A DNA stretch of 64,000 nucleotides from Phycisphaerae bacterium (GTDB taxonomy: Bacteria > Planctomycetota > Phycisphaerae > UBA1845 > Fen-1342). The notes below the pieces were generated by a model. The model did no database searches. It was not told the DNA's origin and was given only the letters and a program-made list of their open reading frames with translations. Positions 7,901 to 40,394 of the stretch are shown one piece after another (position 1 is the stretch's first letter; every line of letters begins with the position of its first letter). The stretch covers positions 148,739-212,738 of the forward strand of contig JASFQK010000002.1 of the NCBI GenBank assembly GCA_050115495.1. Reading direction: 5' to 3'. Position numbers and translations under genes: made by a program.

Positions 7901-8573
7901 GGCACGTGACCTCGGGCGGCGTGGCGTCGATGTAGATCTGCGTGTATTCGAGGTAGGCCGAGTAGTTCTGGAACTCCGGGTCGTAGAACCGGGTCCACGG
8001 CGGCGGGAAGCGGAAGGCGACCGTGGCCGGTCCCTCCTCCTGGGCGGCGGTGAAGGTTAGCGTCACAAGGTCGGCATCTTCCTGCGTGGGCGACTGGTCA
8101 CTGGTGACGGCCGCCCCGAGTTGCAGGTACTCGCCGGAAGGACCATATGGCTCGATGGGGGTGAACGCCGGCAGGCCGTAGGGCGTCGGTGTGTACGCGC
8201 CCTCGACGAAGGTCAGGCGTGTCGGATCGAAGATAAGATAGGCGAAGTAGCCCTGCATCGGGCGCGACAGGCACTCTTGCGCAAGCACGACCGTCACGGT
8301 GTCGCCCGGACGTACACAGGGTGAGCCGTTGCCGTTCATGGATAGGCGTAGCGTGTTCGGCTCGCACTCGCGGCCGGCCGGCCGCACGCCCGGGGGAATG
8401 AGATGCTGCACGAAGGCAGCGCCGGTCGCCGGGTCGGGATTTGGCGGCTCCGGGAGATCGGCTGACGCCGGGACTGGCGTCGCTACGACACACAGCAGAG
8501 CCATCGTGAGCAGGATTGCAGGAAGGCCCGCGGTCTCGCCGCGTTTTCGGGGGGGAGTCAGTGGCAGGTACAT
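4911..8573 (-). CDS. Large secreted protein: cohesin-like domain, ~6 Cys-rich Ig/HYR-like repeats, HYR domains, dockerin-like EF-hand C-terminus
   Basis: Signal peptide; DTTxP...ECx...DxCG...TRTW repeats; C-terminal GNANGDCVIDVRD, DFSGNGVVWQED and DLNGDGWLDVQD motifs. Confidence 0.8.
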   Translation of the reverse strand: MYLPLTPPRKRGETAGLPAILLTMALLCVVATPVPASADLPEPPNPDPATGAAFVQHLIPPGVRPAGRECEPNTLRLSMNGNGSPCVRPGDTVTVVLAQECLSRPMQGYFAYLIFDPTRLTFVEGAYTPTPYGLPAFTPIEPYGPSGEYLQLGAAVTSDQSPTQEDADLVTLTFTAAQEEGPATVAFRFPPPWTRFYDPEFQNYSAYLEYTQIYIDATPPEVTCPPTLVISCLVDLPPAATTTAEFEAQGGTFYDAGSSYCGDPTFTLENETSNGGSGCAGDPLVIERTYGVTDGAGNYASCTQLITIEDNTAPTFDTFPEDVIVECPAEPGETGTPTASDDCGTPTLTYSDEIIPGCGNTGTIHRTWRAEDACGNFVERVQQIIVQDTTDPQWDDFPPDRTIECGSATDPSATGTPTGHDTCGDVTITYSDDVEPGCGLTGIITRTWHIEDECENVAERDQIIVIRDTTTPQWDDFPPDRTVECGSPTSPWATGTATGHDTCGDVTITYSDDVEPGCGLTGIITRTWHIEDECGLFREQDQVITVEDTTAPTFTSFPEDVLVECPNEPGDTGAPTGRDGCGDVTITHVDETVQGCGDTYTTTRTWRVTDDCGNFTERAQLIGVSDTTPPTFTSFPPDAVVQCPDEPGDTGTPTGADTCGDVTITHSDEIEPGCGGTYVITRTWRVTDECDLECTQVQLIGVIDTIGPQVDDPPADTTVECDAIPDAPATLPASDACDPEVQAATYDGQSITPGSCPDEYTITRTWTATDACDNTTTVTQLINVQDTTPPILGTCPPLSADNDTGLCGAVLTLAVTATDNCTADPEVLYAIESEPGSGVFDEPITNPYEFPVGETTVQAVARDACQLESDPQTFLVTISDVEAPLIEGCPQDIVRGPDPGEMGAIITWTEPNATDNCGVTVWESTHSPGDFFEMGTNTVTYTAGDAAGNTTICTFDVVIVDLSALEVTIEMQVNIPTEGMLDRCLLFELWNCDMPELPPVEYEAMLTFVDSGDGSHTVGLAHAVLTDIPAGDYTCITARDPLHTVRRTLSAPDFGLQDGMYRADFVTADKLLISGNANGDCVIDVRDYGVFVCLSGTHFDSNGDGVDDGNTPCGMWDPHAAPPRFHADFSGNGVVWQEDFTYFRNNFLALCEPDCCLLGAFGGDQPILAISLAELRATGQGEFAAADLNGDGWLDVQDIEAFEQALQTPTESATTPAARP

Positions 8574-8787
8574 GGCTGTCGGTCCTCGCTTCGTTTTGTT
8601 CGCCGGCAGGCACGCGGCATTACGCGTGGCCCAGCGGCGAACCGCCGGCGGGAGTGGTCAGAGAATGACCACCCCGGCCCTTGGCCGGCGGCCAACGGCG
8701 CGACCCGGCACCGTCGGCATGTCCTCCGTTCCCATTTAGCGACCGGCCTGCGCCGCCGGGGCGGTCGGCCGGTGCCGTCGCGCCGGG

Positions 8788-11700
8788 TCAATCGCCCGGC
8801 ACGGTCGATCCCTTCGGGTGGTCCTCGATGATCAGGGGCCCGGCGCCGTCGGCGAAGGCCTCGAGGTCCAGGCGATCCAGGCGGCCGTCGCCGTTCAAGT
8901 CGGCGATGGCCAGCTCTTCCAGCCCCAGGACCTGCAGGTCGAAGACGGAGATGGACTCCAGCGGCGCGTCGAACCAGTGCGCGCTCATGTTGAACGTCTG
9001 GCAGCAGTTCACGTCGGACCACACCAGGAAGTTGACGCGTACGTACTCGAAGTCCTCACGCCAGGCGCAGCCGTTGCTGCTGAAGTCAGCGTGGTAGCGG
9101 GCCGGCTGGGCGTGCGGATCCCACATACCGCACGGCGTGTTGCCGTCGTCGACGCCGTCGCCGTCGCTGTCGTAGTGCGGGTGCGACATCTCACAGACGA
9201 GGATGCCGTAGTCGCGGATGTCGATGTAGTTGTCGTCGTTGCCATTGCCGCCCAGCAGCACGTTGGCGGGGCCGACGAACTCCGCCGCGTAGTGGTCGCC
9301 TTCGACGGCCAGGTCGACCGTGCGGCGAATGGTGTGCAGCTTATCGCGGGCGGTGATGCAGTTGAACGCGCCGCACGGCGCGTCGGGCAGCAGGGCCTCG
9401 GCGATGGCCACCGTGTGCGTGCCGTCGCCGGAATCGACGAACGTGAGCATGGTTTCGTAGATTTCGGGCTGCGGGTTTGGCTCGTCGCAGTTCCACAGTT
9501 CGAAGGTGATGCAGCGGTCGACTGTGTCGTTCGGCTCGCCGGCGCAGGCCACCTGCATGGCCACGCGGACGCGCAGCGGCGTGTAGGGCGCTACATCGAC
9601 GTAGAACGTGCAGTCCGTCTGGTTGCCGGCGCGGTCCTCCGCCGTATACGTCACCGGCGTGACCCCGGCCTCGAACCAGTCGCCGGGCGAGTGCGTGGAC
9701 GACACGCCCATCAACTCGCAGTCGTCCGTCGCCTGCGGCTCGGTCCAGGTGACGTACGCCCCGCACTGCCCCGGCAGCGGTGTCGCGTTGATCGTGTCAA
9801 AGGGTTCCTCGGCGGTGGCTTCCACCGGCGGGCAGGGATAACCGGGAACGTCGAACGCCGGCGGAACGTTGTCCACCACCGTCACGTAGAAGATGCACTG
9901 CTCGGACTCGTTGCCGGCACCGTCCAGCGCCCGGTAGATCACCGGCGTCGAGCCGACCGGGAAGATCTCACCCGGGTTGTGGTTCGTCTGCCAGTCGGTC
10001 ACGCTGCAATTGTCGGTCGCCGTCGGCAGCGGCCAGAACACCTGCGCCTCGCACGCCCCCGGCGGATCCTGCGGGACGACGACGTCCTCCGGGCAGGTGA
10101 CGATTTCCGGCGCCTCGGTATCGCGCACCGTGACCTGGAACGTGCAGGGCAGCACCGAGGGCTGGCCGGTCGAGTCGAACGCTTCGACCGTGACCGTCGT
10201 CGTGCCGACCAGGAAGAAGTGCGGACTGGTGATCTCGTTGAAGCCGATGCGGTAGCGGATGATCACGCCCGGGGCGTCGTCGCAGGCCCAGGCCTCGAAG
10301 GCCACCTCGGCCCCACACTCGTCCGGGTCGTTCGGGTACTCATCGACCCAGTTGTCGACCCACGTCTCACGCCACTGCTCGTAATCGCCGGAGGGATACC
10401 ATGTTTCGTCGCAGCCCGTGCAGCCGGCGTTGCCGGGGCAGCAGATGACGGGCCGCTCGTTCTCGATGACGACCTCGAAGATCAGCTCGGCCGTTCCGCG
10501 CGACTCGTCCGAGGCCACGGCCTTCACCAGCGTGGCGACGTCCTGCGGGAACAGGTGAGGCAGATCGCGCGGCAGGGAAACGTCGAAGACGCCCGGCGAG
10601 CTCTCCAGCCAGTAGGTGATCGGTTGCAGGAACTCGGCGCAGTTGTCGATCGCCGAGATGCAGTCGGCTTCACCGCCACCGCCGCACTCGAAATCGACGG
10701 ACGGCGTGAGCCACGCCCCATCGTTCGGCGGCTCCGGCGGGAAGGTGAAGCGCTCCGGACCGGAGATCACCGGCGGCTGCTCGTCGCCGATCTCGACCGT
10801 GAACGTGCAGGTGGGGCTCGCGTTCTCGCAGTCGTCGATCGCTTCGGCCTGGACGGTCGCCGTCCCCACGTCGAACACGTGCGGGCTGGTGATGGGCTGG
10901 TCGTCGATGAAGAAGTGGACGTCGGGATCGGCGTCGCAATCGTCATGGGCCTCGACGAGCGCCAGGAGATCGACGCTGGCGCTGCACACGTCGGGGTCGT
11001 TGGCTTGGTACAGGTCGTCGCATTCCAGCGTCGGCGGCCTCGTGTCCTCGATCGTGAACGTCGCGGAGAGGGACTCTGCGCTGTTGTCGCACTGATCCGT
11101 CGCCCAGAACGTGACTAGCACGTGCTTCGCCTCGCCGCAGTCGACGACCCAGTGCGACGGATCGAAGTCGTTGTGCCACTCCGCCGGCGGGCTGCACGTG
11201 TCGGACGCCTGTGGGGCATTGAGCCATTCGTCGAACTCGGCCGGGTTCACATCGCCGTTGCACTCGACGGTGCGGTCGACCGGGGCAGTGTCCACCGTCG
11301 GCGGCGTCGTATCCACGATCCAGAACGTCGCCCACGTCGGCGAGCCGTCGTTGCCGCACTGGTCCCACGGTGTGAAGGAGACGGTGATGTGCTTCGCCCC
11401 GCCGCAGTCGGCGATCCATTGCAAGGATTCGTAGTTGTCGGTCCACGTCACCGGCGGGCTGCACACGTCGGAGGCCTCGGCCCCGCCGTGGCTGTTACGC
11501 CAGTCGTTGAACTCCTGCTCGTTGCCGGCGCCGTCGCATTCGGCGAGGCCGTCGGTGGCTTCGGGCTCCACCGTCGGCGGCGTAGTGTCCACGATCCAGA
11601 ACGTCGCCTGCCGCGGCTCGGCGGCGTTGTCGCAATCGTCCTTCGGCGTGAAGGCCACGACGACGTGTTTCGCCCCGCCGCAGTCGGCGACCCAGTTCGC

Positions 11701-14700
11701 CGGCGCGAAGTCGTTCTGCCACGTCACGGGTTCGCTGCACAGGTCGGAGGCTTCACCCCCGCCGTGGCTGTTGAGCCACGCGTTGAACTCCGCTCGATTC
11801 CCGTTGCCATCGCATTCGACGGTGCAGTCCGCCGGCATTGTGTCGATGTTCGGCGGCGTCGTATCCACGATCCAGAACGTCGCGGACGTGGACTCGCCGC
11901 CGATGCCGCACGCATCCTTCGGCGTGAACGTGACGAGCACGTGCTTGGCGCCACCGCAGTCGGTGACCCAATTCGCCGAGTCGTAGTCATCGGTCCACGT
12001 CACCGGCTCGCTGCACAGATCGGAGGCCGCGGCCCCGCCGTGGCTGTCACGCCAGGCGCCGAACTCCGCCGGGTTGCCGGCACCGTCGCATTCGACCGTC
12101 GCGTCGCTGGCCGGCGTGTCCAGCGTCGGCGGCGTGGTGTCCACGATCCAGAACGTCGCGGACACGGGCTCGGTGCTGTTGTCGCACTGGTCCGTCGCCC
12201 AGAATGCCACCGTCACGTGCTTCGCACCGCCGCAGTCGGCGACCCAGTGCGACGGGTCATAGTCGTTGTGCCACTCTGCCGGCGGACTGCACACGTCGGA
12301 CGCCTCGGCCCCGGCGTGCGTCGTGAGCCAGTCGTCGAATTCCTGCACATTGCCGGCACCATCGCACTCGACGGTCTGGTCGGTGGGCTCGGTGTCGAAC
12401 ACCGGTGGCGTGGTGTCCACGATCCAGAACGTCGCGGACATGGGCTCGGTGCCGTTGCCGCACTCGTCCGTCGCCCAGAACGTCACGGTGACGTGTTTCG
12501 CCCCGCCGCAGTCGGCGACCCAGTTCTCCGGCTCGTAGTCGTTGTGCCACGTGGCGGGCGGGCTGCACGTATCGGACGCCTGTGGGGCGTTGAGCCACTC
12601 ATCGAATTCGTCCAGGTTCCCGGCGCCGTCGCATTCGACGGTGCGGTCCGCCGGCGGTTCATCGACGGTCGGCGGCGTGGTATCCACGATCCAGAACATC
12701 GCCTGCCGCGGCTCGGCGGCGTTGCCACAATCGTCCTTCGGCGTGAAGGCCACAACGACATGTTTCGCCCCGCCGCAATCAGCGACCCAGTGGCTCTCGT
12801 CGTAGTCGTGTTCCCAGGCCACGTCGTCGCAGAGGTCCAACGCCGCGCCGCCGCCGTGGCTGTCGAGCCAGCCGCTGAGTTCCTGTAGGTTGCCGGCGCC
12901 GTCGCACTCGGCGGTCTCGTCCTGCGGTGACTGCGTCCACTCCGGCGGCGTCGTGTCCGCGATCCAGAACGTGGCCAAGGTCGCCGGACCCTCGTTGTCA
13001 CACGCGTCCCACGGCGTGAAAGCGACTTCGACGTGCTTGGCGCCGCCGCAATCGGCAACCCAGAGGCTCTCGTCGTAGTCGTCCGTCCAGGTTACGTCGC
13101 TGCAATTGTCCGTGGCCTCCCCGCCGCCGTGGTTGTCGAGCCAGTCATTGAACGGCTGCACGTTGCCCAGGCCGTCGCATTCGACGGTCTCGTCGTCGGC
13201 GTCGGTTTCGATCTCGGGCGGCGTGTCGTCGATGACCGTGATGCGGCGTGTGCATTCAGCCGTGTTGCCGGCACCGTCCGTGGCGAGATAGACACGCCTG
13301 AGAACGTACACGTCTCCAGGACAGCCCGCACCATTGAGTTCAACGTCTTCGCTCGACAGCGTCACTTCGATCGGGCAGTAGCCGGCGCTGCCGTCATCGA
13401 CCCAACCGTTGTCCGGGTTGTCATCGAAGAAGTCTTCGATGTCCTCTTCGGGCGTCGGAATGTCCGCCATGCACTGCACCTGCTCGTCGACGCAGTGGAT
13501 CTCCGGGTCCGTGCCATCGATGAGAATCCCCTGGTACCAGAACGTGGGCGGGAACGTGCCGCTCGTGCACCTGAAGAAGAGTGACGGCATCTCCGGCGCC
13601 GTGTGGTCGAACAGGATGTAGGCGAGGCCCTCTTCGGTCGCGGTCATAAACGTCAGCACAACGAGGTCGGCGTCATCGCTTGAGCAGGGCTGACCGTCGG
13701 CGATCGTTGCCGTCAGGTCGATGTTGGGTCCGTTGGCGGTGATGGGGATCTCCCAGTCGCCATAGGGTTCTGCCGTGTAGTGGCCGTTTTTGAATGTGAG
13801 CTGGTTGTCGTCGAACCACAGACGAGTCTGAAAGCCGCGCATCGCCTCGGTCATGTTCGACTGCGAGAGAATGACCGTGAGTTCGTGTTCGGGCGGGACG
13901 CAGAAATCGTCGCCGTCGTCGACGGATAGCCCCAGCATGTTTGGGTAACCCAGTCCGCGCAGGCGCACGCCCGCGCCGGAGCCGGCCCAATGGCCGGCGC
14001 CCTCCGGCCTTCCCGACACGTCGAGGTGGCGCCCGATGATGGCGGCCCCGGGATCGGTGAAGACCGGGAAGACGTCGGCATCAGAACCTGGCTCCCCTTC
14101 CTGCCAGGACAGTGGCAAGATCTCGACCAGGAAACGGCGGCTGATGGTGAAGTCCAGGCCGGCGGCGCTCAGGTCGAGCAGCCCCGTCCGCACGACGTAC
14201 GTCCCCGCGGCCGGCAGATCGAGCGGCGCGAAGCGGTACGCCAGCGTGCTGACGGGCGCATCCGGAAGTTGCGCCGGCACGTCACCCGACGGGGGCAGCG
14301 TGTAGAACGAGACGAGCACGTACGGCTCCACGATCTCGTGTGCCGCTGCACTGCGTACGCCGAACGTGAACTCGCACTCCGTCACGTGGCTTTGTGTGGC
14401 CGCCGGCCCCGAGCCCAACTCGGCGATGCGCCGGGCAGCGTACGTCCGACCCGCCGGCCCGCAGTTCCAGTACCAGAAGCCGCCGTCGGTCGGGCGCATC
14501 GCGCAGAAGAGCTCGGCCGGCCCCTGCGTCCCACCGTCCGGCGGTGCCGGTACGGCGCCGAGCGGGACCGCGCGCAGCGTACCCGCGATCGCCTCTGGTG
14601 TAGCATCATTAGCTGTAGGCTCATTGGCTACAACGCAGTTCGCTTTCAAGCGCGCGTAGTCGGCCGCGCTGACTGGCGTCTGGGCATGGGCTGAACGGGT

Positions 14701-14784
14701 GTCCACCAGCCAGGCGACAAATACGGACACTGCAATCGTGGTGAAGCAGATACGACGCCGGCGCGAGCGATTCTCGGTAGACAT
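8788..14784 (-). CDS. Giant secreted protein (paralog of 4911..8573): cohesin-like domain, 8 tandem ~90-aa Cys-rich repeats, HYR domains, dockerin-like C-terminus
   Basis: Signal peptide (SAHA|Q); repeats 'WIVDTTPP...ECDGAGN...WVADCGGAKHV'; C-terminal ~250 aa highly similar to the neighbour. Confidence 0.8.
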   Translation of the reverse strand: MSTENRSRRRRICFTTIAVSVFVAWLVDTRSAHAQTPVSAADYARLKANCVVANEPTANDATPEAIAGTLRAVPLGAVPAPPDGGTQGPAELFCAMRPTDGGFWYWNCGPAGRTYAARRIAELGSGPAATQSHVTECEFTFGVRSAAAHEIVEPYVLVSFYTLPPSGDVPAQLPDAPVSTLAYRFAPLDLPAAGTYVVRTGLLDLSAAGLDFTISRRFLVEILPLSWQEGEPGSDADVFPVFTDPGAAIIGRHLDVSGRPEGAGHWAGSGAGVRLRGLGYPNMLGLSVDDGDDFCVPPEHELTVILSQSNMTEAMRGFQTRLWFDDNQLTFKNGHYTAEPYGDWEIPITANGPNIDLTATIADGQPCSSDDADLVVLTFMTATEEGLAYILFDHTAPEMPSLFFRCTSGTFPPTFWYQGILIDGTDPEIHCVDEQVQCMADIPTPEEDIEDFFDDNPDNGWVDDGSAGYCPIEVTLSSEDVELNGAGCPGDVYVLRRVYLATDGAGNTAECTRRITVIDDTPPEIETDADDETVECDGLGNVQPFNDWLDNHGGGEATDNCSDVTWTDDYDESLWVADCGGAKHVEVAFTPWDACDNEGPATLATFWIADTTPPEWTQSPQDETAECDGAGNLQELSGWLDSHGGGAALDLCDDVAWEHDYDESHWVADCGGAKHVVVAFTPKDDCGNAAEPRQAMFWIVDTTPPTVDEPPADRTVECDGAGNLDEFDEWLNAPQASDTCSPPATWHNDYEPENWVADCGGAKHVTVTFWATDECGNGTEPMSATFWIVDTTPPVFDTEPTDQTVECDGAGNVQEFDDWLTTHAGAEASDVCSPPAEWHNDYDPSHWVADCGGAKHVTVAFWATDQCDNSTEPVSATFWIVDTTPPTLDTPASDATVECDGAGNPAEFGAWRDSHGGAAASDLCSEPVTWTDDYDSANWVTDCGGAKHVLVTFTPKDACGIGGESTSATFWIVDTTPPNIDTMPADCTVECDGNGNRAEFNAWLNSHGGGEASDLCSEPVTWQNDFAPANWVADCGGAKHVVVAFTPKDDCDNAAEPRQATFWIVDTTPPTVEPEATDGLAECDGAGNEQEFNDWRNSHGGAEASDVCSPPVTWTDNYESLQWIADCGGAKHITVSFTPWDQCGNDGSPTWATFWIVDTTPPTVDTAPVDRTVECNGDVNPAEFDEWLNAPQASDTCSPPAEWHNDFDPSHWVVDCGEAKHVLVTFWATDQCDNSAESLSATFTIEDTRPPTLECDDLYQANDPDVCSASVDLLALVEAHDDCDADPDVHFFIDDQPITSPHVFDVGTATVQAEAIDDCENASPTCTFTVEIGDEQPPVISGPERFTFPPEPPNDGAWLTPSVDFECGGGGEADCISAIDNCAEFLQPITYWLESSPGVFDVSLPRDLPHLFPQDVATLVKAVASDESRGTAELIFEVVIENERPVICCPGNAGCTGCDETWYPSGDYEQWRETWVDNWVDEYPNDPDECGAEVAFEAWACDDAPGVIIRYRIGFNEITSPHFFLVGTTTVTVEAFDSTGQPSVLPCTFQVTVRDTEAPEIVTCPEDVVVPQDPPGACEAQVFWPLPTATDNCSVTDWQTNHNPGEIFPVGSTPVIYRALDGAGNESEQCIFYVTVVDNVPPAFDVPGYPCPPVEATAEEPFDTINATPLPGQCGAYVTWTEPQATDDCELMGVSSTHSPGDWFEAGVTPVTYTAEDRAGNQTDCTFYVDVAPYTPLRVRVAMQVACAGEPNDTVDRCITFELWNCDEPNPQPEIYETMLTFVDSGDGTHTVAIAEALLPDAPCGAFNCITARDKLHTIRRTVDLAVEGDHYAAEFVGPANVLLGGNGNDDNYIDIRDYGILVCEMSHPHYDSDGDGVDDGNTPCGMWDPHAQPARYHADFSSNGCAWREDFEYVRVNFLVWSDVNCCQTFNMSAHWFDAPLESISVFDLQVLGLEELAIADLNGDGRLDRLDLEAFADGAGPLIIEDHPKGSTVPGD
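11050..13235 (-). repeat. Intragenic tandem repeat, 8 units of ~260-280 bp
   Basis: Recurrent 'ccacgatccagaacgtcgc' and 'cgccgcagtcggcgacccag' blocks. Confidence 0.9.
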
Positions 14785-16413: not shown

Positions 16414-17736
16414 CAGGGCGATCGCATCTTAATTTCCCTGCGAGAGGATCTTGAGCAGATAGTCGTGGTCCCAGCCGCAGCAGAGGCGTTTGGACTTGAG
16501 GCCCGCTTTCTTGCTCGATTCGGCTTTCAGCAGGTTCAGGGCGATCCGACTGAGCCGGGAGAAGTTCTCCGCCGCGTGGCCCGTACGCAGGCGGCGGCGG
16601 TCCTCGTCGAACACCACGTCCAGCCGCCAGTGCAGCCGGTTCTCGACGCCCCAGTGGTCCCGCACCCGCTGCAGCATCCGCTCGGCGTCGCACGTCTCCA
16701 CGCTGCTGATGTAGTAACGCCGATCCGTGGAGCACTCACCGTTCACTTCCCGGCTCGACTCCACGCAGGCGAAGCTGCCCAGGTTTGCCCACGCCGCACC
16801 GTCCGGCAGCCAATCGACGTCGGTCGTCATCCAACAGCGACGCGTCTCCAGCCGGCCGTGGCCCTTGTCGACCTCTTCCACATAGTCATGTGCGACCGCG
16901 TGGGCATCCTGTCGCCGACACTCATCGAACAGCAGTTGAAGTTCCTTTTCCAGCTTGGGCTGATTGCCTTTGACTGGCAGCACGTAATCGGCCCCACAGG
17001 CGATGGCCTTCTCGGCAATCGCCTTCTGACAGCCCATCGCGTCCGTGGTCACCACCGCCCCGTCCAGATCCAGCAACTCCAGCAACTGCGGAATCGCCGT
17101 GATCTCGTTGCTCTTGGCGTCGGTCACGAGTTGCCCCAGCACGGTCTGGTTGTGCTCGCACCAGGCGCTGACCATATGGATCGCCGATTGCCCGGCGACG
17201 CGATCGAAACTGCCACGGAGCGTCTTGCCGTCGATCGCGACCAGGCGACCCAACGGCTTGTCCGCCAGAGCGTTGATCCACTTCAGGAAACACTGCTCGA
17301 ACTGACGCGGGTCGAGTCGGGCGAAGACGCGGCCGAAGGTGTCGTGCGAGGGGATGCCGTGGGGCAAATGAAGGAACGTGCGGAACCACTTGAGCTTGGA
17401 CTGGCCAAACAACTCGACCTGGGCCCAGCCGTCGACACCGCAGATCACGGCGCAGATGGCGATGATCAGGATATCGTTGAGGGAGTGCCGTTTGGTCCGA
17501 TCCACACGCGGGTCCTCAAGATCGCGAAAATGGCGCAGCAGGCCAGAGTGGGCTCCAACTTCCATGTTGCAGCTCCTTTCAACAACGAAGTTGACGTTGT
17601 TGGCGAGGCCTCGCCGATCCAGTGGACGGTGACCCTACCCAACGGCCGCGATTGGCGCAACCCTAACAAACATAAAACAACCCAAACCCCTCGCATCCAC
17701 ACCACGCAACACCACGATTTAGATGCGATCGCCCTG
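16414..17736 (-). mobile_element. ISAs1-family insertion sequence, 1323 bp
   Basis: 16-bp terminal inverted repeats CAGGGCGATCGCATCT (16414-16429 and 17721-17736); 8-bp direct repeat GAAGGTGT at 16406-16413 and 17737-17744. Confidence 0.95.
16429..17565 (-). CDS. ISAs1-family DDE transposase
   Basis: DPR...HSL, GIPSHDTFGRVF, IDGKTLRGS, KSNEITAIP, DAMGCQK, VKGNQP, HGRLETR, HWGVENRLHWRLDV; intact ORF. Confidence 0.96.
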   Translation of the reverse strand: MEVGAHSGLLRHFRDLEDPRVDRTKRHSLNDILIIAICAVICGVDGWAQVELFGQSKLKWFRTFLHLPHGIPSHDTFGRVFARLDPRQFEQCFLKWINALADKPLGRLVAIDGKTLRGSFDRVAGQSAIHMVSAWCEHNQTVLGQLVTDAKSNEITAIPQLLELLDLDGAVVTTDAMGCQKAIAEKAIACGADYVLPVKGNQPKLEKELQLLFDECRRQDAHAVAHDYVEEVDKGHGRLETRRCWMTTDVDWLPDGAAWANLGSFACVESSREVNGECSTDRRYYISSVETCDAERMLQRVRDHWGVENRLHWRLDVVFDEDRRRLRTGHAAENFSRLSRIALNLLKAESSKKAGLKSKRLCCGWDHDYLLKILSQGN

Positions 17737-27035: not shown

Positions 27036-28295
27036 TTAAGGGGACGTGGTGCGCCCGCGATCGCCGACGGCGTGGTCGCATTCGGGGCACACGCCGGATG
27101 TGTTGCCGCGCAGGTCGTAGCCGCATTCGGGGCAGCGGCCGCTGATGTTGCCGGTGAGGTTGTAGCCGCACTCACGGCAGACGTTCTTGTGCTTGCGCGG
27201 CAGCCATCGCCGGATGAGCGGGGCGATGGCGAACACGATCAGCGGATACACGAGCAGCAGCGCGGCGACCAGGGAATGCGGCATCGCAATCTGCCGCAGC
27301 TTCATCACGAGAGAACCGCGGAAACTGAGTTCACGCGCGAGGAGCAGTCCCCAGAGATGGGTTTCGCTACGCGCGCACACGTCTTTCAGCCATGACTCTG
27401 ACGCGTCCCAACTCCCTCCAATGCCCCAGAACGTCGGGGCAGGGTCACTGGGGCACCCGCCAGTGCTCCACAAGTGGCCAAGGCTAAGCCATCCAAGGTG
27501 CGATTTCGCATATGCGTAGGTTGTAGGCGACAGGCAGAGAACGTGGCTGCCTCGCCCCGCGCCCCCGGGGCCGAGGGTGAAGCTGCGCTGGCGCAAAACG
27601 ATGACGCCGAGTGCCAGCAGGATCAGCAAAACCGCGACGATCCTGTTGTTCAGGAGACGCGTGTTTCGGCCGGTGACGCGCCGTTCGGGCCGGTGCTCGT
27701 TGACCGCTGCCCCGCATTCGGGACAGCGGCCGCTGACGTTGCCGGTGAGGTTGTAGCCGCACTCGCGGCAACGCGAGGCGTTCGACTGTGCCGGCCTGTT
27801 TCTGCCCACAAACCGAGCTAGGACGTATGCCAGCAGGACCGCGCCGGGACCGACGAAGAGCAGCGGCGCCAATTGCTCCAGCACTTCTGTTGGGGAGTAG
27901 GAGACTGCAGCAGTCTTGTGGCTGAAACTGCCCGTTGAAGCCAGGTACAGGAACTCCGTGCCACAGAGCGTGATCGACAGGACCAGCCCGCTCAGCGCGT
28001 GCAGCCACAACTTCGGCCTGAGGAGTAGTCCGTAGAGGATGATGAACGCCACGGGCACGACCTGCGCCGCCCAGAGCGGCTGCGTGTGGTACGACCACGG
28101 GAAGAGCTGGACCGGGAACCAGTACTTCACATAGAGCGGTGGATAATTGGGGAACAGCCAGCACGCCACCCAATCGAACACCGTCAGCAGCCGCCGGAAC
28201 ACGAACCACGAGCCGAGGCCGGCCGCCAAATGCACGACCGGACACAAACGGGGTTTCCAACGCCGTGTCACGACCCGCGGTGTCATTCGAATCAT
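27036..28295 (-). CDS. Membrane protein with three CxxCGYxLxGxxSGxCPEC zinc-ribbon motifs
   Basis: Multiple TMs; CRECGYNLTGNVSGRCPECG internally; doubled ribbon at the C-terminus. Confidence 0.75.
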   Translation of the reverse strand: MIRMTPRVVTRRWKPRLCPVVHLAAGLGSWFVFRRLLTVFDWVACWLFPNYPPLYVKYWFPVQLFPWSYHTQPLWAAQVVPVAFIILYGLLLRPKLWLHALSGLVLSITLCGTEFLYLASTGSFSHKTAAVSYSPTEVLEQLAPLLFVGPGAVLLAYVLARFVGRNRPAQSNASRCRECGYNLTGNVSGRCPECGAAVNEHRPERRVTGRNTRLLNNRIVAVLLILLALGVIVLRQRSFTLGPGGAGRGSHVLCLSPTTYAYAKSHLGWLSLGHLWSTGGCPSDPAPTFWGIGGSWDASESWLKDVCARSETHLWGLLLARELSFRGSLVMKLRQIAMPHSLVAALLLVYPLIVFAIAPLIRRWLPRKHKNVCRECGYNLTGNISGRCPECGYDLRGNTSGVCPECDHAVGDRGRTTSP

Positions 28296-28799: not shown

Positions 28800-29792
28800 T
28801 TACTCCTGAGTCTCCGGTGGGCTAGGCGGCGACCGCCAGCAGCCATCGGTCGCGTCGCCGGGGTCGCCCGGGTTGGTACCACCGTCCTGGGCATCCCGCC
28901 ACTCATCCCCGGAGTGTTCCTCCAGCGGGCTCTCCGGGCTGGCTGAGGCACGCGCGCCTGCCCACAGCAGCAAGGCCCCAATCAGCCATACACCGCCCCA
29001 CCCTGCCAGTTGTGCGAAGCCCAGCCGGTTGGGCGTGAGCAGTGTGCCGCGCGTCATCACCGTGACCGGCCGCGCCGTGAACGTCTGCATGGACTGGGCC
29101 ACGGCTTGCAGGTCCTTCCCGTCCGCCACCGTACAGAGCGCATCGAGCAGCTCGCGCACTTCCGCTTGAACGCGCTCATCGGCGACGGCAACACCACCCA
29201 CCACACTCAGCTCGTACAGCAGAGTCCGCTCATTCATCGCTTGCAGCGCGCCATAGCCGTCCGAATCGCCTCGAGCATCGTCCTTCCGGATGACACTTGT
29301 ACCCGTCGTTAATGGCCGCCCGTCCGGCAAACCGACGAATGCCAGCGATATCGCTTCGAAGTCCGTCGCCAGCGGGCGACCGTCACGCAACAGGTCAATG
29401 CGGACTGACTGGTACGCGCCCGATTTCGGCGTCAGCAGCACGGTGCGGGGCACTACCCTGGTCGCCGGCGGCGATGAGAAGCCGGGGGGCAGAACGGCAT
29501 TGAGCAGCACGGCGGGCAGCGCCAGCATCAGCAGCCATGCAGCGCCGGCCTTCGCACGCCAGGCACCACGGGAGTACAGGATCGTGCCGTCCTGTTGCCA
29601 GTCGCTGCCGCATTCCGGGCAAACCGCCGAGGGCAGCATCTCCACGCGATACGAACATCGCCCGCACAACGGGACGCCGATGGACTCCCGCAGCCGCCAC
29701 GTCCGCACGAGGAGCGTCACGCCGCAGGCGGACAATATGAGTGCTGCCCCGAGCGCGATGAGCGTCGATGGCGGGATCCCCATGTACATCAT
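28800..29792 (-). CDS. Membrane protein with zinc ribbon (CGRCSY...CPECG)
   Basis: TM - ribbon - TM - soluble domain - TM architecture. Confidence 0.7.
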   Translation of the reverse strand: MMYMGIPPSTLIALGAALILSACGVTLLVRTWRLRESIGVPLCGRCSYRVEMLPSAVCPECGSDWQQDGTILYSRGAWRAKAGAAWLLMLALPAVLLNAVLPPGFSSPPATRVVPRTVLLTPKSGAYQSVRIDLLRDGRPLATDFEAISLAFVGLPDGRPLTTGTSVIRKDDARGDSDGYGALQAMNERTLLYELSVVGGVAVADERVQAEVRELLDALCTVADGKDLQAVAQSMQTFTARPVTVMTRGTLLTPNRLGFAQLAGWGGVWLIGALLLWAGARASASPESPLEEHSGDEWRDAQDGGTNPGDPGDATDGCWRSPPSPPETQE

Positions 29793-32442: not shown

Positions 32443-32898
32443 CTACTCCCGGCCGAATAGGTGGCGGAGACGGTCCCAAATGCTCCGTTTGGCGGGAGAC
32501 CGAGACGTCCGTTCCGCATGCTTCGTGTGATCATTGGGCTTCACGGCGTTATGTCGGGCGTAGTGCCGCTCTCTGCACGACGAGTCACAGGCGCGCCCAA
32601 GGCGGATCTGCTCGTCAGTCCATTTTCTTGCCCAACGAACGGTGTCTCGTTTGATCCAGTAGTGGGATCGACAGGGAAAGCTCCAGTTGCCGACGGAGGG
32701 ATCGAGCGAAACGGTTTCACCGTCAAAGATGAGAGTCCAGTCGGTCGGAGTCAGAGGGGTAACCGCCTCGCGGCCGCATCCGCAGCAGCACCTGTGTACT
32801 GCGGTCGCGTATCGGACGGATACATACAAGACGCCCTCGTTCAGTTGATCCGGAATGAAGTCGACGAATTCATGTTTGAGGACGTGGACTCGCCTCAC
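32443..32898 (-). CDS. DUF6527-like Cys/His-rich protein
   Basis: FVDFIP..L..GVLYVS, HRCCCGCG, SLDPSVGNW..PCRSHYWI; GTG overlaps the ThiF stop (GTGA). Confidence 0.8.
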   Translation of the reverse strand: MRRVHVLKHEFVDFIPDQLNEGVLYVSVRYATAVHRCCCGCGREAVTPLTPTDWTLIFDGETVSLDPSVGNWSFPCRSHYWIKRDTVRWARKWTDEQIRLGRACDSSCRERHYARHNAVKPNDHTKHAERTSRSPAKRSIWDRLRHLFGRE

Positions 32899-34073
32899 GC
32901 CTTCTCCTCATTCGTAATCGTGTTTCCGTCGATCGTATAGGTTGTGTGGTGTTCACGTTCCAGGTCGAGGTAGAACCCCCGGAGCTTCTTCCACTTGATC
33001 ACTGCAAGCGAGGCGGCCAGCGAGTTGAGTTCGGCGATCTGGATGTTCGTCGAGTATGCATTGTCTCGCCCGCCGCCGAAAGGAATCCGGTATCTCTCGT
33101 GTACGTGGCCACGAAGTTCAGGTGTGCTCGTCGTGACACGCACAACGCCCAGGAGCTTCTCGTCGGGCCGTAACACTCCAAGCCCCGCGTCGATGAACGG
33201 CGTTCCACGACGTTCGACGTGGTCAATAATCGGTAGCTTCGACTCTGCGTCATCGACACAGAGAAACACGATCGACATATCGTCCAGCAGGTTCACGTTG
33301 GAATATCCTAGTCGACAATCGTGCGGTACGATGCCGCTATGAAGCGCGCCGTACTTGCCGGCGAAGTAGGCGACCTTCTTTGGCTTCGCTCTCAGGTCGT
33401 GGATGGGCGCGGCCCCAGGGGCTCTGAACGCGCTGTGGGTAAAGAAGCAGTCGTCATCGAAGAGGTGGATTGCTCGCACTGGCGTCTTGGCGACCAGATC
33501 GAGGACATATGACCCGGTCCCACCAAGACCGACTATCGCGACGCAGTCGCCCGCCACACGCTCATTGAGGTCGGCGATGCCCGCCCGGCTTGACGCCGTG
33601 TCGACGTACCGAAAGACACTGCCGTCCACGTCGCTGTTGAAGACCGGGAACGGCGTTGCTGATGTAGTCGGATCTATGGCGACCGCCGGCGCGGAGAGGA
33701 TGGCCGCATATGTAGCCATCTTCTCGTAGTGGTCCGCGTATCCGCTTGGCGGCTTACTCGAGAAGGAATGGCTGACCGTGAGGCCATCGCCGATTCTGCG
33801 TGTCTGTGATTGATGCCGGATTCTCTCCAGAGGGTGCCCCTGGTGGTCGCACGGATAGTCTCCGGCAAAGTGCACGACATGTGTGCGCGGCCGCGTGGTT
33901 CTGTCGCCTTGGAGTGTCAGCTCGGAAACGAGCGTACCATACGCTACGTGGCGGTTTCCACTAACGTAAGGAACTCGGTCAACAACCACGTGGCCCGCCC
34001 TGATTGAGACGTCGTAACCCTCGTCGCGGAGTCGTTTGAGATCGGGATTACGACTTATCAGTTGCTGTGACAT
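32895..34073 (-). CDS. E2-like (DUF6791-like) plus ThiF/E1 adenylyltransferase fusion
   Basis: N-domain 'DLKRLRDEGY...VPYV...HFAGDYPCD...FSSKP...Y.D..EK..TY'; ThiF GLGGTGSY, FDDD...HSAFRAPG, CVDD, NIQIAELN. Confidence 0.88.
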   Translation of the reverse strand: MSQQLISRNPDLKRLRDEGYDVSIRAGHVVVDRVPYVSGNRHVAYGTLVSELTLQGDRTTRPRTHVVHFAGDYPCDHQGHPLERIRHQSQTRRIGDGLTVSHSFSSKPPSGYADHYEKMATYAAILSAPAVAIDPTTSATPFPVFNSDVDGSVFRYVDTASSRAGIADLNERVAGDCVAIVGLGGTGSYVLDLVAKTPVRAIHLFDDDCFFTHSAFRAPGAAPIHDLRAKPKKVAYFAGKYGALHSGIVPHDCRLGYSNVNLLDDMSIVFLCVDDAESKLPIIDHVERRGTPFIDAGLGVLRPDEKLLGVVRVTTSTPELRGHVHERYRIPFGGGRDNAYSTNIQIAELNSLAASLAVIKWKKLRGFYLDLEREHHTTYTIDGNTITNEEKA

Positions 34074-34701
34074 TGAAGACCATCCCATTCCTGATGTGAA
34101 CCGACTGGCCTTCGATCAGAGTCCCCTCGGGATTGCAGGGCGGGCCATTTCGGTAGGTCGCGGTGAAGAGCCAGTTGGCGCCCTCCGGTACCGGGTCGAA
34201 CGCCAGCGTGAGTAGTTCCCTGAACGTCAATGTCCTCTGTTCGACCGTTTTCCTGCGGCCGTTGACGATGATCGTGAGCACCCGTTCGGTGTAGAAACGC
34301 TCCAGACCCCGTCGGTCGAGCGAGACTTCCTGACCAGGCTGGAGCAGCAGATCTTCCTGATTGCGCCGCTCCAACCAAACGCGACCGTGGTGACCTACGC
34401 CCGCGATGTGTCTCAGCGTCGACTCGGCGATTGAGTCGGCGCCCCACGGCTGACGCTGGCCGTTGAGTTCGAAGTTGAACAGGCGGTCGGCGCAGAATGT
34501 CAGAAAACGCTCGCGCCCCGGTTCCTGAAGGTCCACCGTCTCCTCGAGGTCAATGTCCTCAAGCTGTCGTCCTTCGCCGAAATGAAGCACAACGTGCTCC
34601 TCCACCGGCGTTCGCCCGGCAAGCTCCAGTAGTTGGCGACCCGTTAGCACGGGGTCGGCAGACTGGTACGTCTGACCGTCCATCGTGAGCGTGTATGCCA
34701 T
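34048..34701 (-). CDS. Multi-ubiquitin domain protein (3 beta-grasp domains)
   Basis: Three ~70-aa units ('LTGRQLLELAG...VDL..PG.ERF', 'LNG...L..RG.ERFYT', 'IIVNGR...LTF.EL..LAF...G.L..GQSV.I.NGMVFNV'); GAGG RBS. Confidence 0.85.
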   Translation of the reverse strand: MAYTLTMDGQTYQSADPVLTGRQLLELAGRTPVEEHVVLHFGEGRQLEDIDLEETVDLQEPGRERFLTFCADRLFNFELNGQRQPWGADSIAESTLRHIAGVGHHGRVWLERRNQEDLLLQPGQEVSLDRRGLERFYTERVLTIIVNGRRKTVEQRTLTFRELLTLAFDPVPEGANWLFTATYRNGPPCNPEGTLIEGQSVHIRNGMVFNVTATDKS

Positions 34702-34812
34702 TCTCGGACCTCACTTTCTCACTTTCGTGATACAAATGTTGACGAATCCGTATATAATGAGTGCCAGAGGAAGGGCCCACGCTGGGCCCTAGAGACGCAA
34801 TCGTCATAGTTC

Positions 34813-34841
34813 TTTATACGTCATCGTCAATGAGGTGTCAA
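34813..34841 (-). promoter_or_regulatory. Sigma70-type promoter for the Ubl operon
   Basis: Minus strand TTGACA (34841-34836), 17 bp spacer, TATAAA (34818-34813). Confidence 0.7.
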
Positions 34842-34843
34842 GG

Positions 34844-35191
34844 ATGTCCGAGAATTTCGCGGATCGGCTGCGCAAGATCCGGCTGGAAAGGGGATTGAGC
34901 CAAACCGACCTCGCCAAGCGGGCGAGGTTTCAGCCCTCCGCGATCTCCCACTTCGAAACACGGACCCGCTCGCCTTCGTTCGACAACCTTCGGCGACTCG
35001 CGGACGCCCTCGGAGTATCGATCGATTACCTGCTCGGACGCCAGTCAGAATCCACTGCGGCTGGGCCAGTGGCCGACCGCCTACACCGCAACTTCGAGAA
35101 GATGAGTTCTTCCGACCAGGAGTTCATTGCAGCGATGGCCGAAGAACTCGCGAAGAAGAATGCAGCTGCGGACAAGGACAGGGGAGCGTAG
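34844..35191 (+). CDS. XRE-family HTH transcriptional regulator (CapH/ImmR/DdrO-like)
   Basis: RLRKIRLERGLSQTDLA...AISHFE...PSFDNLRRLADALGVSIDYLLGR. Confidence 0.93.
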   Translation: MSENFADRLRKIRLERGLSQTDLAKRARFQPSAISHFETRTRSPSFDNLRRLADALGVSIDYLLGRQSESTAAGPVADRLHRNFEKMSSSDQEFIAAMAEELAKKNAAADKDRGA

Positions 35192-35194
35192 CGC

Positions 35195-36028
35195 GTGGGG
35201 AATTCGATCCACTATGAGCAAGGTGAGGCGCAGGCACGCTGTGTGCTGGAGGCAAACGGCCTGACCACACTGCCTGTATGCCCATTCGCGCTCGCAGAGA
35301 AGCACGATATCGTGGTGAGGACACGCAAGAGCGGGGAGCCGGGGGTAACGGGCTTCCTCATGCGCATAGGCCAGGAGTTCGGCGTCTACTACGCCTCGCA
35401 CATCGATAACGACGGGTTTATTCGATTCACGGTCGCACACGAGCTGGGTCACTACTTCATACCCGGTCACCCGCAAGCGCTCTTCCCTAATGGCGACGGC
35501 ATCCACGCGAGCCGGGCCTGGAATCCGACGGGAGATCGATATGAGAAGGAAGCTGACGGGTTCGCTTCCGGTTTGCTCATGCCTCGAGAGCTGTTTGTCG
35601 CGGAGATGCGTGAGCTTCAGAGCGGTTTCGCGGCAATCGAATCGCTGGCATCGACATGTCGTACATCGATTACCTCGACGGCGATTCGCTACGCCCGATT
35701 TGCCGATGATCCGGTCGCGGTCGTCGTGAGCACGGGGGCCCTCATAGACTACTGTTTCATGTCGGATGCGATACGGCGAATGGAGGGCGTGACGTGGATC
35801 GGCAAGGGCGAGAGCCTCCCGCCGCGATGCGAAACCAGGAAATTCAATTCGACGTCATCGAATGTCTCCAGCGGGAGGAAAGCGTATGGATGGGCCTCGA
35901 TGGACGATTGGTTCGAGGGTGCCCCACAGGTCGAGATGAAGGAGGACGTCGTCGGTCTCGGTTCGTACGGCAAGACTCTCACCGTGCTATTCACGGACCA
36001 GGCAATTGACGATGACGAGATAGACTGA
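35195..36028 (+). CDS. ImmA/IrrE-family zinc metallopeptidase (CapP-like)
   Basis: RFTVAHELGHY (HExxH), EKEADGFASGLLMP, HTH-like 'LASTCRTSITSTAIRY', C-terminal GAF-like region. Confidence 0.92.
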   Translation: MGNSIHYEQGEAQARCVLEANGLTTLPVCPFALAEKHDIVVRTRKSGEPGVTGFLMRIGQEFGVYYASHIDNDGFIRFTVAHELGHYFIPGHPQALFPNGDGIHASRAWNPTGDRYEKEADGFASGLLMPRELFVAEMRELQSGFAAIESLASTCRTSITSTAIRYARFADDPVAVVVSTGALIDYCFMSDAIRRMEGVTWIGKGESLPPRCETRKFNSTSSNVSSGRKAYGWASMDDWFEGAPQVEMKEDVVGLGSYGKTLTVLFTDQAIDDDEID

Positions 36029-36175
36029 GATGCCGGTTTGGTTTGCGTAGCAGAAGAGGGCAACGAGCCCACGGCCCGAGCGCCCGAAAGCGCAAGAAGC
36101 GACCCGCTGCCGCGTCGCCGCGACAGCGGGTCGGTGTCTCGTGTGCGGACGGTGCGTCCCCGGGCCGCGATGCGC

Positions 36176-39534: not shown

Positions 39535-39939
39535 TCAGATCTCCCAGCCGCACTGGGGACAGCGCGGCTCGGTCAGGCGGGCCAGCGTGTGCCGGCAACG
39601 CGGACAGCGAAGGCGTCCGCTGCCGTAGACGCCGTCCGTCAGTGTCAGCCAGTGATAGACAAGCAGGGTCACGAGAAACGGCGGGATCGTCATTACGATC
39701 AGCGCAAGCTCGATGCGGCCGAGGGCTCCCATCAAGTAATACGGCAGCCGCGTCTGCCGGATGACCAGCCAGTAGGCGACGAGCGCGACGGCGAAGACCG
39801 GCAACGTGGCGATGAGGCGCAGCGGCCAGGCGATTCTCCGGCGGCTCTGCTGAACCCAGCCGCAGGCGGTGCATTGGCTGCGCCGCCTTCGCCGTCGCAA
39901 GGCCCCGCCGCAGGATGGACACTGCTCCGCAGGCTTCAT
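39535..39939 (-). CDS. Small membrane protein with N- and C-terminal zinc ribbons
   Basis: CPSCGG...CTACG, 2 TMs, CPRCRHTL..LTEPRCPQCG. Confidence 0.75.
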   Translation of the reverse strand: MKPAEQCPSCGGALRRRRRRSQCTACGWVQQSRRRIAWPLRLIATLPVFAVALVAYWLVIRQTRLPYYLMGALGRIELALIVMTIPPFLVTLLVYHWLTLTDGVYGSGRLRCPRCRHTLARLTEPRCPQCGWEI

Positions 39940-39989
39940 CGCGTCGCCCTCTCTGGAACACCGCACCGCCGGCGGCGAGCGTTGCACGG

Positions 39990-40394
39990 TCAAATCACCC
40001 AGCCACACTCTGGACAGCGCGGTTCGGTCAAGTGCATCAGCAGATGGCCGCAGCGCGGGCAGTGCAGCCGCCCGTCACCATGGGTTTCATCAAAGAACGT
40101 CAGCCAGTGATATACGAGGACTCCCAGCAGCAGCGGCAGGATCGCCATCGCCGCGAAGAAGGGCTCGGCGCGCATGCCGAAGAACCACGCCGGATCGGGC
40201 CACGGGATACACTCGAACGCGCAATACACCGCCCGGTAGCCGCCGATGAAGACGAGCAAGGCCGCGATGCAGCGCAGCGGCCACGGTGCCCGTCGCCGAA
40301 TCCTCAGCACGCGGCCGCAGGAACGGCAGCGGTTGTGTCGCCACCGCCGTTGCAGCACGCCAGCACAATCCGGGCACTGTTCCGGCGAGAACAT
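39990..40394 (-). CDS. Small double zinc-ribbon membrane protein (tandem paralog of 39535..39939)
   Basis: CPDCAG...CRSCG, 2 TMs, CPRCGHLL..LTEPRCPECG. Confidence 0.75.
   Translation of the reverse strand: MFSPEQCPDCAGVLQRRWRHNRCRSCGRVLRIRRRAPWPLRCIAALLVFIGGYRAVYCAFECIPWPDPAWFFGMRAEPFFAAMAILPLLLGVLVYHWLTFFDETHGDGRLHCPRCGHLLMHLTEPRCPECGWVI

Follow-up and report, generated by a model that had tools for sequence, protein, structure and literature searches.

The question raised by this locus is what a tight cluster of ubiquitin-like, E1/E2-like and regulatory genes encodes in a bacterial chromosome, and by what chemistry its products would act. We analysed 64,000 nucleotides from Phycisphaerae bacterium (assembly GCA_050115495.1, contig JASFQK010000002.1, positions 148,739 to 212,738 of the forward strand; this whole stretch is called the window), in which five genes lie between positions 32443 and 36028. 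An original prediction, made from the sequence alone, had taken them for an uncharacterised ubiquitin-like conjugation system with a catalytic cysteine in its E2 domain. We conclude, with a probability of about 0.9, that the locus is an intact Type II Bub operon (BubA, BubBD and BubE) paired with CapH and CapP, carried on a horizontally acquired cassette of about 3.6 kb. The operon belongs to an already described type and leaves the picture of the family unchanged.

The locus is a Type II Bub operon paired with CapH and CapP

Bub operons, formerly called 6E/DUF6527, have been described by Ye, Gong, Chambers and Corbett (bioRxiv 10.1101/2024.11.21.623953, hereafter Ye et al.). Type II operons, formerly 6E.2/DUF6527, comprise a BubA that has between one and three beta-grasp domains, a BubBD protein in which E2 and E1 are fused, and BubE, usually without a JAB peptidase; CapH and CapP accompany 168 of 544 published Bub operons (31%). 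The gene set found here corresponds exactly to this Type II definition in Pfam, with three Multi_ubiq matches, DUF6791 joined to ThiF, and DUF6527. All five of the open reading frames (ORFs) in the original prediction are present, and every one of its domain calls (these three together with HTH_3 and Peptidase_M78) is borne out by Pfam. The features are as follows.

32443..32898, minus strand: bubE, a DUF6527 protein of 151 residues
32895..34073, minus strand: bubBD, an E2-E1 fusion of 392 residues from the Met at 34073; its reading frame stays open as far as 34088 (397 residues)
34048..34701, minus strand: bubA, a triple beta-grasp ubiquitin-like protein (Ubl3) of 217 residues with the C-terminus ...TATDKS
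34702..34843, no strand: divergent control region of 142 bp, with candidate CapH operators and a GC-rich palindrome
34844..35191, plus strand: capH, an XRE-family helix-turn-helix (HTH) repressor of 115 residues from the ATG at 34844, or 118 residues from the GTG at 34835
35195..36028, plus strand: capP, an M78/IrrE-type HExxH metallopeptidase of 277 residues with a C-terminal sensor region

The overlaps claimed for the three minus-strand genes are there: bubBD and bubE share 4 nt, and bubA and bubBD share 41 nt when the longest ORF is taken, which falls to 26 nt with bubBD starting at the 34073 Met. The annotation of a Rhizobium plasmid shows identical overlaps of 26 and 4 nt. On the plus strand, capH and capP are separated by 3 nt. 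A Pfam scan of the cluster and of 35 flanking ORFs of the window (the three nearest and 32 further ones) revealed no JAB peptidase, in agreement with the absence noted earlier, and likewise no CD-NTase and no JAB-type Cap3.

The closest parallel is the Type II Bub operon of E. coli ZDHYS365, which shares with this copy its gene order and fusions, the lack of JAB, the TDKS end of BubA, the E2 His, Ser and Lys, the E1 Arg, the crossover-loop Tyr, and the four-cysteine (C4) and Ser-His residues of BubE; the CapH/CapP association is common in the family. Unlike that reference, the copy here resides in a high-GC planctomycete-type host, has diverged in sequence, has no tRNA-linked mobile element or defence island around it, and belongs to a clade in which Cys80 of BubBD is invariant. 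The Type I operon of Citrobacter sp. RHBSTW-00271 (BubAB, BubCD and BubE; PDB 9ea4, 9ea5, 9ea8, 9eae and 9eav) supplies, for each half of BubBD, the nearest structure that has been solved, and shares the oxyester logic and BubE, but it is built from Ubl-E2 and JAB-E1 fusions and needs cleavage of BubAB by JAB, whereas here E2 is fused to E1 and JAB is lacking. Bil and Cap2 systems are, like Bub, bacterial E1/E2-based conjugation systems, often regulated by damage or phage. In Bil, E1 and E2 are separate proteins that use catalytic cysteines, and a JAB accompanies them, in contrast to the fused, JAB-free copy here with no invariant Cys. Cap2 of type II cyclic oligonucleotide-based antiphage signalling systems (CBASS) is an E2-E1 fusion like BubBD, but conjugates the CD-NTase and pairs with the JAB peptidase Cap3; the PADLOC E1-E2 (Cap2) models match BubBD in the nucleotide-binding stretch only, at E 2e-5 or weaker.

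The claim that such operons lacked any mechanistic characterisation does not stand, as Bub structures and biochemistry were made public in 2024, with release of the PDB entries following on 2025-09-24.

BubA ends like an E. coli protein that is active in vitro unprocessed

BubA matches Pfam Multi_ubiq in three stretches (E 3.2e-46), and phmmer aligns its residues 15-217 with residues 18-222 of the crystallised E. coli ZDHYS365 Ubl3 (PDB 9cd2) at E 1e-36. A C-terminal Ser in place of Gly was considered as an anomaly that would call for processing, and this idea was rejected: the E. coli ZDHYS365 protein has the identical TDKS end, and the Methylobacterium BubA ends in Ser too. A non-glycine C-terminus is thus normal for Type II. 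Since E. coli BubA is active in vitro without processing (Ye et al.) and shares this end, no maturation step would be needed here.

BubBD carries the serine and tyrosine of the Bub family

Residue numbers in BubBD follow the ORF beginning at 34088 unless stated. Pfam finds DUF6791 at residues 15-164 (E 3.5e-57) and ThiF at residues 182-303 (E 2.2e-8), and NCBIfam NF004805 matches the full length with 526.8 bits against a cut-off of 352. The E2 domain occupies approximately residues 6-140 and carries His70, Ser110 and Lys112, while the ThiF-type adenylation domain that follows has Arg222 and a crossover-loop Tyr345, and lacks a Cys domain. Conservation was assessed in 63 diverse full-length representatives (38-52% identity), chosen by a length of 385-406 residues from the best 150 of 938 homologous proteins (E <= 0.001). 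His70 and Arg222 are kept in all 63, Ser110 and Tyr345 in 62 each, and Lys112 in 60. Counted from the Met at 34073, the key residues become Ser105, Arg217 and Tyr340 and adjoin the published Ser106, Arg219 and Tyr342 of E. coli BubBD, mutation of which abolishes BubA conjugates (Ye et al.). Ye et al. give a serine as the E2 nucleophile of the family, within what they call an 'invariant serine, lysine and histidine', and the crossover-loop tyrosine as the E1 nucleophile. The E. coli and Citrobacter systems are the ones for which ATP-dependent conjugation by way of oxyester intermediates has been demonstrated. Since these residue-level tests fit the Bub family, the conjugation chemistry here is probably of the oxyester kind, through Tyr and then Ser, and not a thioester cascade.

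Structural comparison points the same way. For a full-length model of BubBD (mean predicted local distance difference test score, pLDDT, 80.6), the first eight Foldseek matches are all chains of Citrobacter BubCD (E 7e-12 to 4e-11), with UBA5, MccB and ThiF after them in the list. Among PDB sequences, a profile of the 63 homologues reaches BubCD at 2.9e-12, and a single-sequence phmmer search of the same sequences with BubBD gave nothing at E <= 0.01. For the E2 domain modelled separately (pLDDT 89.7), the best of 48,161 chains in VIA-align is Citrobacter BubB (9eav_D; Z 8.8, root-mean-square deviation 3.6 Å over 119 residues). The rows after it are led by the VPS37A UEV (Z 5.7) and Ubc8 (Z 5.1) and are mostly E2, UEV and RWD folds at Z 3.6-5.7. 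The E2-like N-domain of the original prediction is in this way upheld as a UBC-like fold.

The true start of bubBD is most likely 34073, at the Met with which all 26 aligned homologues begin. An existing gene-product copy (P0004; within 32895-34088) has 274 residues at 100% identity and covers 69% of the ORF; this gene call seems to begin at an internal Met and to miss most of the E2 domain. The long form is favoured on account of the homologues and the DUF6791 match.

BubE is a probable serine-histidine peptidase

BubE matches Pfam DUF6527 at E 3.3e-25. In an alignment of 30 sequences, picked from the best 120 matches listed, Cys37, Cys39, Cys41, Cys76, Ser64, Ser68, Ser78 and His79 are invariant (30/30). 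From this pattern, the four cysteines are predicted to form a C4 zinc site, with Ser68 and His79 as a candidate dyad; the Cys76-x-x-His79 spacing equals that of the published C99 and H102. The C-terminal tail is amphipathic and rich in Trp and Leu. DUF6527 proteins have been described as Ser-His dyad proteases with a structural C4 zinc site, and Citrobacter BubE cleaves BubA-GFP (a fusion to green fluorescent protein) in a Ser- and His-dependent manner and removes conjugates in cells (Ye et al.). The DUF6527 protein of this locus is probably such a Ser-His peptidase. An earlier guess that it was a peptidase is retained, whereas its casting as a zinc-catalytic peptidase or an E3 gives way to the published description, in which the zinc is structural.

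CapH, CapP and the control region

CapH matches Pfam HTH_3 (8e-17) and the PADLOC capH profile over positions 3-102 of 103 (7.4e-23), and its PDB matches include the 434 repressor, 7t5u and DdrO. CapP matches Peptidase_M78 (2.4e-10), the PADLOC capP profile over positions 5-241 of 242 (1.1e-54) and, by phmmer with residues 57-268, the PDB entry 7t5t 'CapP' (7.6e-11). The predicted divergent repressor/peptidase switch is confirmed at this level. The HExxH motif of CapP is His82-Glu83-x-x-His86, and its translation is free of Cys from residue 87 to 116, the stretch that separates HExxH from the downstream Glu. A 'cysteine switch' loop is found in 33% of CapPs and is optional (Lau et al., bioRxiv 10.1101/2022.04.27.489752). 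The pair otherwise resembles the CapH/CapP of CBASS and other defence operons, in which an HTH repressor likewise precedes an HExxH peptidase bearing a C-terminal sensor, divergent from the cargo; it differs from about a third of CapPs in lacking the loop cysteine. Cleavage of CapH by CapP, stimulated by single-stranded DNA (ssDNA), has been shown for E. coli MS115-1 (Lau et al.; Calloji et al., bioRxiv 10.64898/2026.05.16.725639). The start of capH is most likely the ATG at 34844: a homologue in a Planctomycetales contig (L001) aligns from residue 4, and a GAGG lies 8 nt upstream of this ATG.

The 142-bp control region contains three 12-bp GACG-N4-CGTC-like palindromes, at 34741-34752, 34794-34805 and 34817-34828, of which one is perfect and two have one mismatch each. 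Between these operator-like sites lies a GC-rich palindrome at 34772-34790, AGGGCCCA-CGC-TGGGCCCT. Sites of this kind have a background density of 0.48 per 140 nt in the window, and a single one means little, since across the whole window the perfect pattern is seen 13 times where 6.1 would be expected. Two near relatives, L001 and a metagenome locus (L024), permit the control region to be compared, and both carry the same three sites with spacings of 53-54 and 23 bp. In L001 all three are perfect, intergenic and the sole matches in the locus (expected 0.26; none of 200 shuffles reaches three). The arms of the GC palindrome stay complementary through two-sided changes in both relatives. The three sites are candidate CapH operators and the GC palindrome a candidate hairpin or second operator, which provides a concrete and testable operator model. 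A scan for terminators found two terminator-like matches against 2.9 expected. Downstream of the pair, the gap that separates capP from a convergent NHL/beta-propeller gene contains, at 36100-36133, an inverted repeat of 15 nt (4-nt loop, 93% complementary), possibly a bidirectional terminator; the T-run scan made no call on it.

Composition, distribution and mobility

The GC content is 0.57-0.62 over 32500-36000 and 0.64-0.69 beside it, and GC at third codon positions is 0.68-0.73 in the five genes against 0.78-0.90 in neighbouring genes, so the less GC-skewed codon usage that had been remarked on is real. Together with a patchy distribution and homologues on plasmids, this low GC supports the horizontal acquisition proposed earlier. 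DUF6527 (PF20137) occurs once in the genome itself, in none of three other genomes of the genus and in 8 of 151 sampled genomes of the order (7 over the cut-off). Homologues of BubBD are present on 128 plasmid records, 40 of them conjugative and 56 mobilisable (96 together), and tblastn of BubBD against 50,697 phage records gave no match.

L001, on a contig of a Planctomycetales metagenome-assembled genome, carries the same five-gene module at 78-87% identity, the contig ending inside bubBD so that bubE is not seen, and the metagenome locus L024 carries it at 66-74% identity. Bub genes are found in 3 of 44 CapP-related metagenome loci, which fits CapH/CapP as a portable regulator. A search of genome contigs with BubBD returned two loci only, and a DNA search of 31 related genomes with a 7-kb region gave short weak matches only, except for the Bub operon in one of them (G022).

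Three further loci were noted in passing. In Methylobacterium phyllosphaerae (L002, 1175-7608), the bubBD frame of a Type II Bub operon continues into bubE, suggestive of a frameshift close to the 3' end. Upstream of it is a 1131-residue ORF with, by eye, an HExxH ImmA-like motif (HEIGH) and a UvrD-like helicase, and a large ATPase-like gene follows; unlike the window, this context looks like a defence island. L018 and L022, from genomes G114 and G039 of the same order, show, besides a DUF6527 match, only weak and incomplete similarity to BubA and to the E1 portion of BubBD, and their operons are probably of Type I, not Type II.

Alternative readings

Several observations weigh against the Type II Bub reading or against parts of it. 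Foldseek of the E2-domain model against the PDB gave no match at E <= 0.001 (best E 0.5), and the E2 assignment is for that reason based on the VIA-align result. The Pro79-Cys80 pair of BubBD is invariant among the 27 closest homologues. In BubE, Ser64 and Ser78 are as invariant as Ser68, which corresponds to Ser92 of Citrobacter BubE by motif only, the Cys-to-Ser spacing differing by one residue. A simple scan found no sigma-70-like promoter. The Pfam scan of the flanking ORFs showed no defence genes beside the cassette; there is no tRNA in the window, no integrase at the cassette borders and no convincing direct repeat flanking it. The Bub authors, finally, found no phage protection in E. 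coli (Ye et al.).

The catalytic cysteine of the original prediction, in the motif 'YPCD', would make the system a canonical thioester cascade with Cys80 as the E2 active site. Besides its invariance in the closest relatives, Cys80 is kept in 53 of the 63 diverse homologues and, as we read the predicted secondary structure, falls in the loop that follows strand four of the UBC-like fold, roughly where residues of the E2 active-site loop sit. In the other ten, however, it is replaced by His, Ser, Tyr, Phe or Leu, a lower conservation than that of Ser110, Lys112 and His70; the published nucleophile is a serine, the S106A and Y342F mutations of E. coli BubBD abolish BubA-BubA conjugates (Ye et al.), and the E1 half has no Cys domain. 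We regard a cysteine cascade as very improbable; in this protein's own clade the Cys80 thiol may contribute. In favour of a ThiF/MoeB-type sulfur-carrier or cofactor-biosynthesis locus, beta-grasp proteins also serve as sulfur carriers, and BubBD does possess a ThiF-family adenylation domain, with weak NCBIfam ThiF matches far under the cut-off (22.6 bits against 275). Against it, the scan of the 35 flanking ORFs found no ThiS, ThiG, ThiH, MoaD or MoaE gene and no rhodanese, in keeping with the earlier remark that no thiamine or molybdopterin gene is nearby. The Ubl is made of three domains with Ser, not Gly-Gly, at its end, E2 and E1 form one fusion protein, Bub proteins are the nearest relatives of solved structure, and at the loci seen the homologues do not sit in thiamine or molybdopterin operons. 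Of all the alternatives this is the one to which we give the least credence.

That BubE serves as an E3 or an adaptor, or matures BubA by proteolysis, instead of being a deconjugating peptidase, is unlikely, if more plausible than the two preceding ideas. A role in Ubl transfer was raised by the published authors before testing, cleavage by BubE in vitro is very slow (48 h), and Type II operons are found without any other peptidase (Ye et al.). The Ser- and His-dependent cleavage and conjugate removal by the Citrobacter enzyme argue for deconjugation, and the TDKS end of BubA argues against a maturation role. The whole cassette might instead be a decaying, non-functional remnant, isolated as it is with no mobility genes beside it and with an apparently frameshifted homologue in Methylobacterium. 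Against this, none of the five ORFs is interrupted and each has the length typical of the family, no conserved catalytic or ligand residue is missing, and the overlaps and control region are conserved with L001 and L024; we consider decay scarcely credible, about on a par with the cysteine cascade or slightly below it.

A proposed mechanism

The set of genes, their folds, the conserved residues, and the composition and distribution of the cassette are observed; the biochemical steps, inducing signal and operator assignment that follow are all inferred by homology with the E. coli ZDHYS365 and Citrobacter systems. CapH dimers on the GACG-N4-CGTC sites of the 142-bp region would hold down expression of the two divergent units. 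DNA damage or phage replication would generate ssDNA that activates CapP, leading to cleavage of CapH and de-repression of the operon. The E1 half of a BubBD dimer would then adenylate the C-terminal carboxylate of BubA (Ser217 of TDKS) using Arg222, after which BubA would move to the crossover-loop Tyr345 as an oxyester and from there to the E2-domain Ser110, with help from Lys112 and His70, to end on lysines of target proteins. BubE, as a zinc-stabilised Ser68/His79 peptidase, would strip BubA from conjugates and so limit the pathway. Three-domain Ubls of the Bub family form Ca2+-dependent filaments (bioRxiv 10.1101/2024.11.21.623966), and the three-domain BubA of this locus may do so too.

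A defence role for this cassette is unproven, and no recognisable defence island surrounds it. A more specific idea, which we hold to be doubtful, is that in this free-living planctomycete-type genome the cassette might be a self-contained stress module, induced by ssDNA or damage and tagging host proteins, not an antiphage system; its triple GACG-N4-CGTC CapH operator and conserved GC hairpin would belong to that control, and Cys80, clade-invariant and next to the E2 serine, might add a thiol-dependent step, as a relay or redox gate, to the oxyester chemistry.

Ubiquitin-like tagging via tyrosine and serine oxyesters is unusual, and this locus adds to a family of known chemistry a planctomycete-type chromosomal example, an intact and compact one whose regulator is closely paired with it. 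The main value of the analysis is in correcting the catalytic-cysteine idea and the claim that the system was uncharacterised; a minor point, bearing on the E2 active site, is the Cys80 pattern.

Other features of the window

The 32 further flanking ORFs are ordinary chromosomal genes, for example a sulfatase, giant HYR-domain proteins, a Ser/Thr kinase and PPDK. Two very large ORFs at 4911-14784 (1220 and 1998 residues) bear HYR domains typical of surface proteins. The sole mobility gene seen in the window is a DDE transposase (DDE_Tnp_1_assoc and DDE_Tnp_1) at 16429-17565, 15 kb from the cassette. Flanking the cassette are membrane-protein-like ORFs at 27036-28295, 28800-29792, 39535-40008 and 39990-40394 with C-terminal zinc ribbons (C-x2-C...RCPECG), one of which is matched by Pfam DZR; present on both sides of the cassette, they look like a paralogous family.

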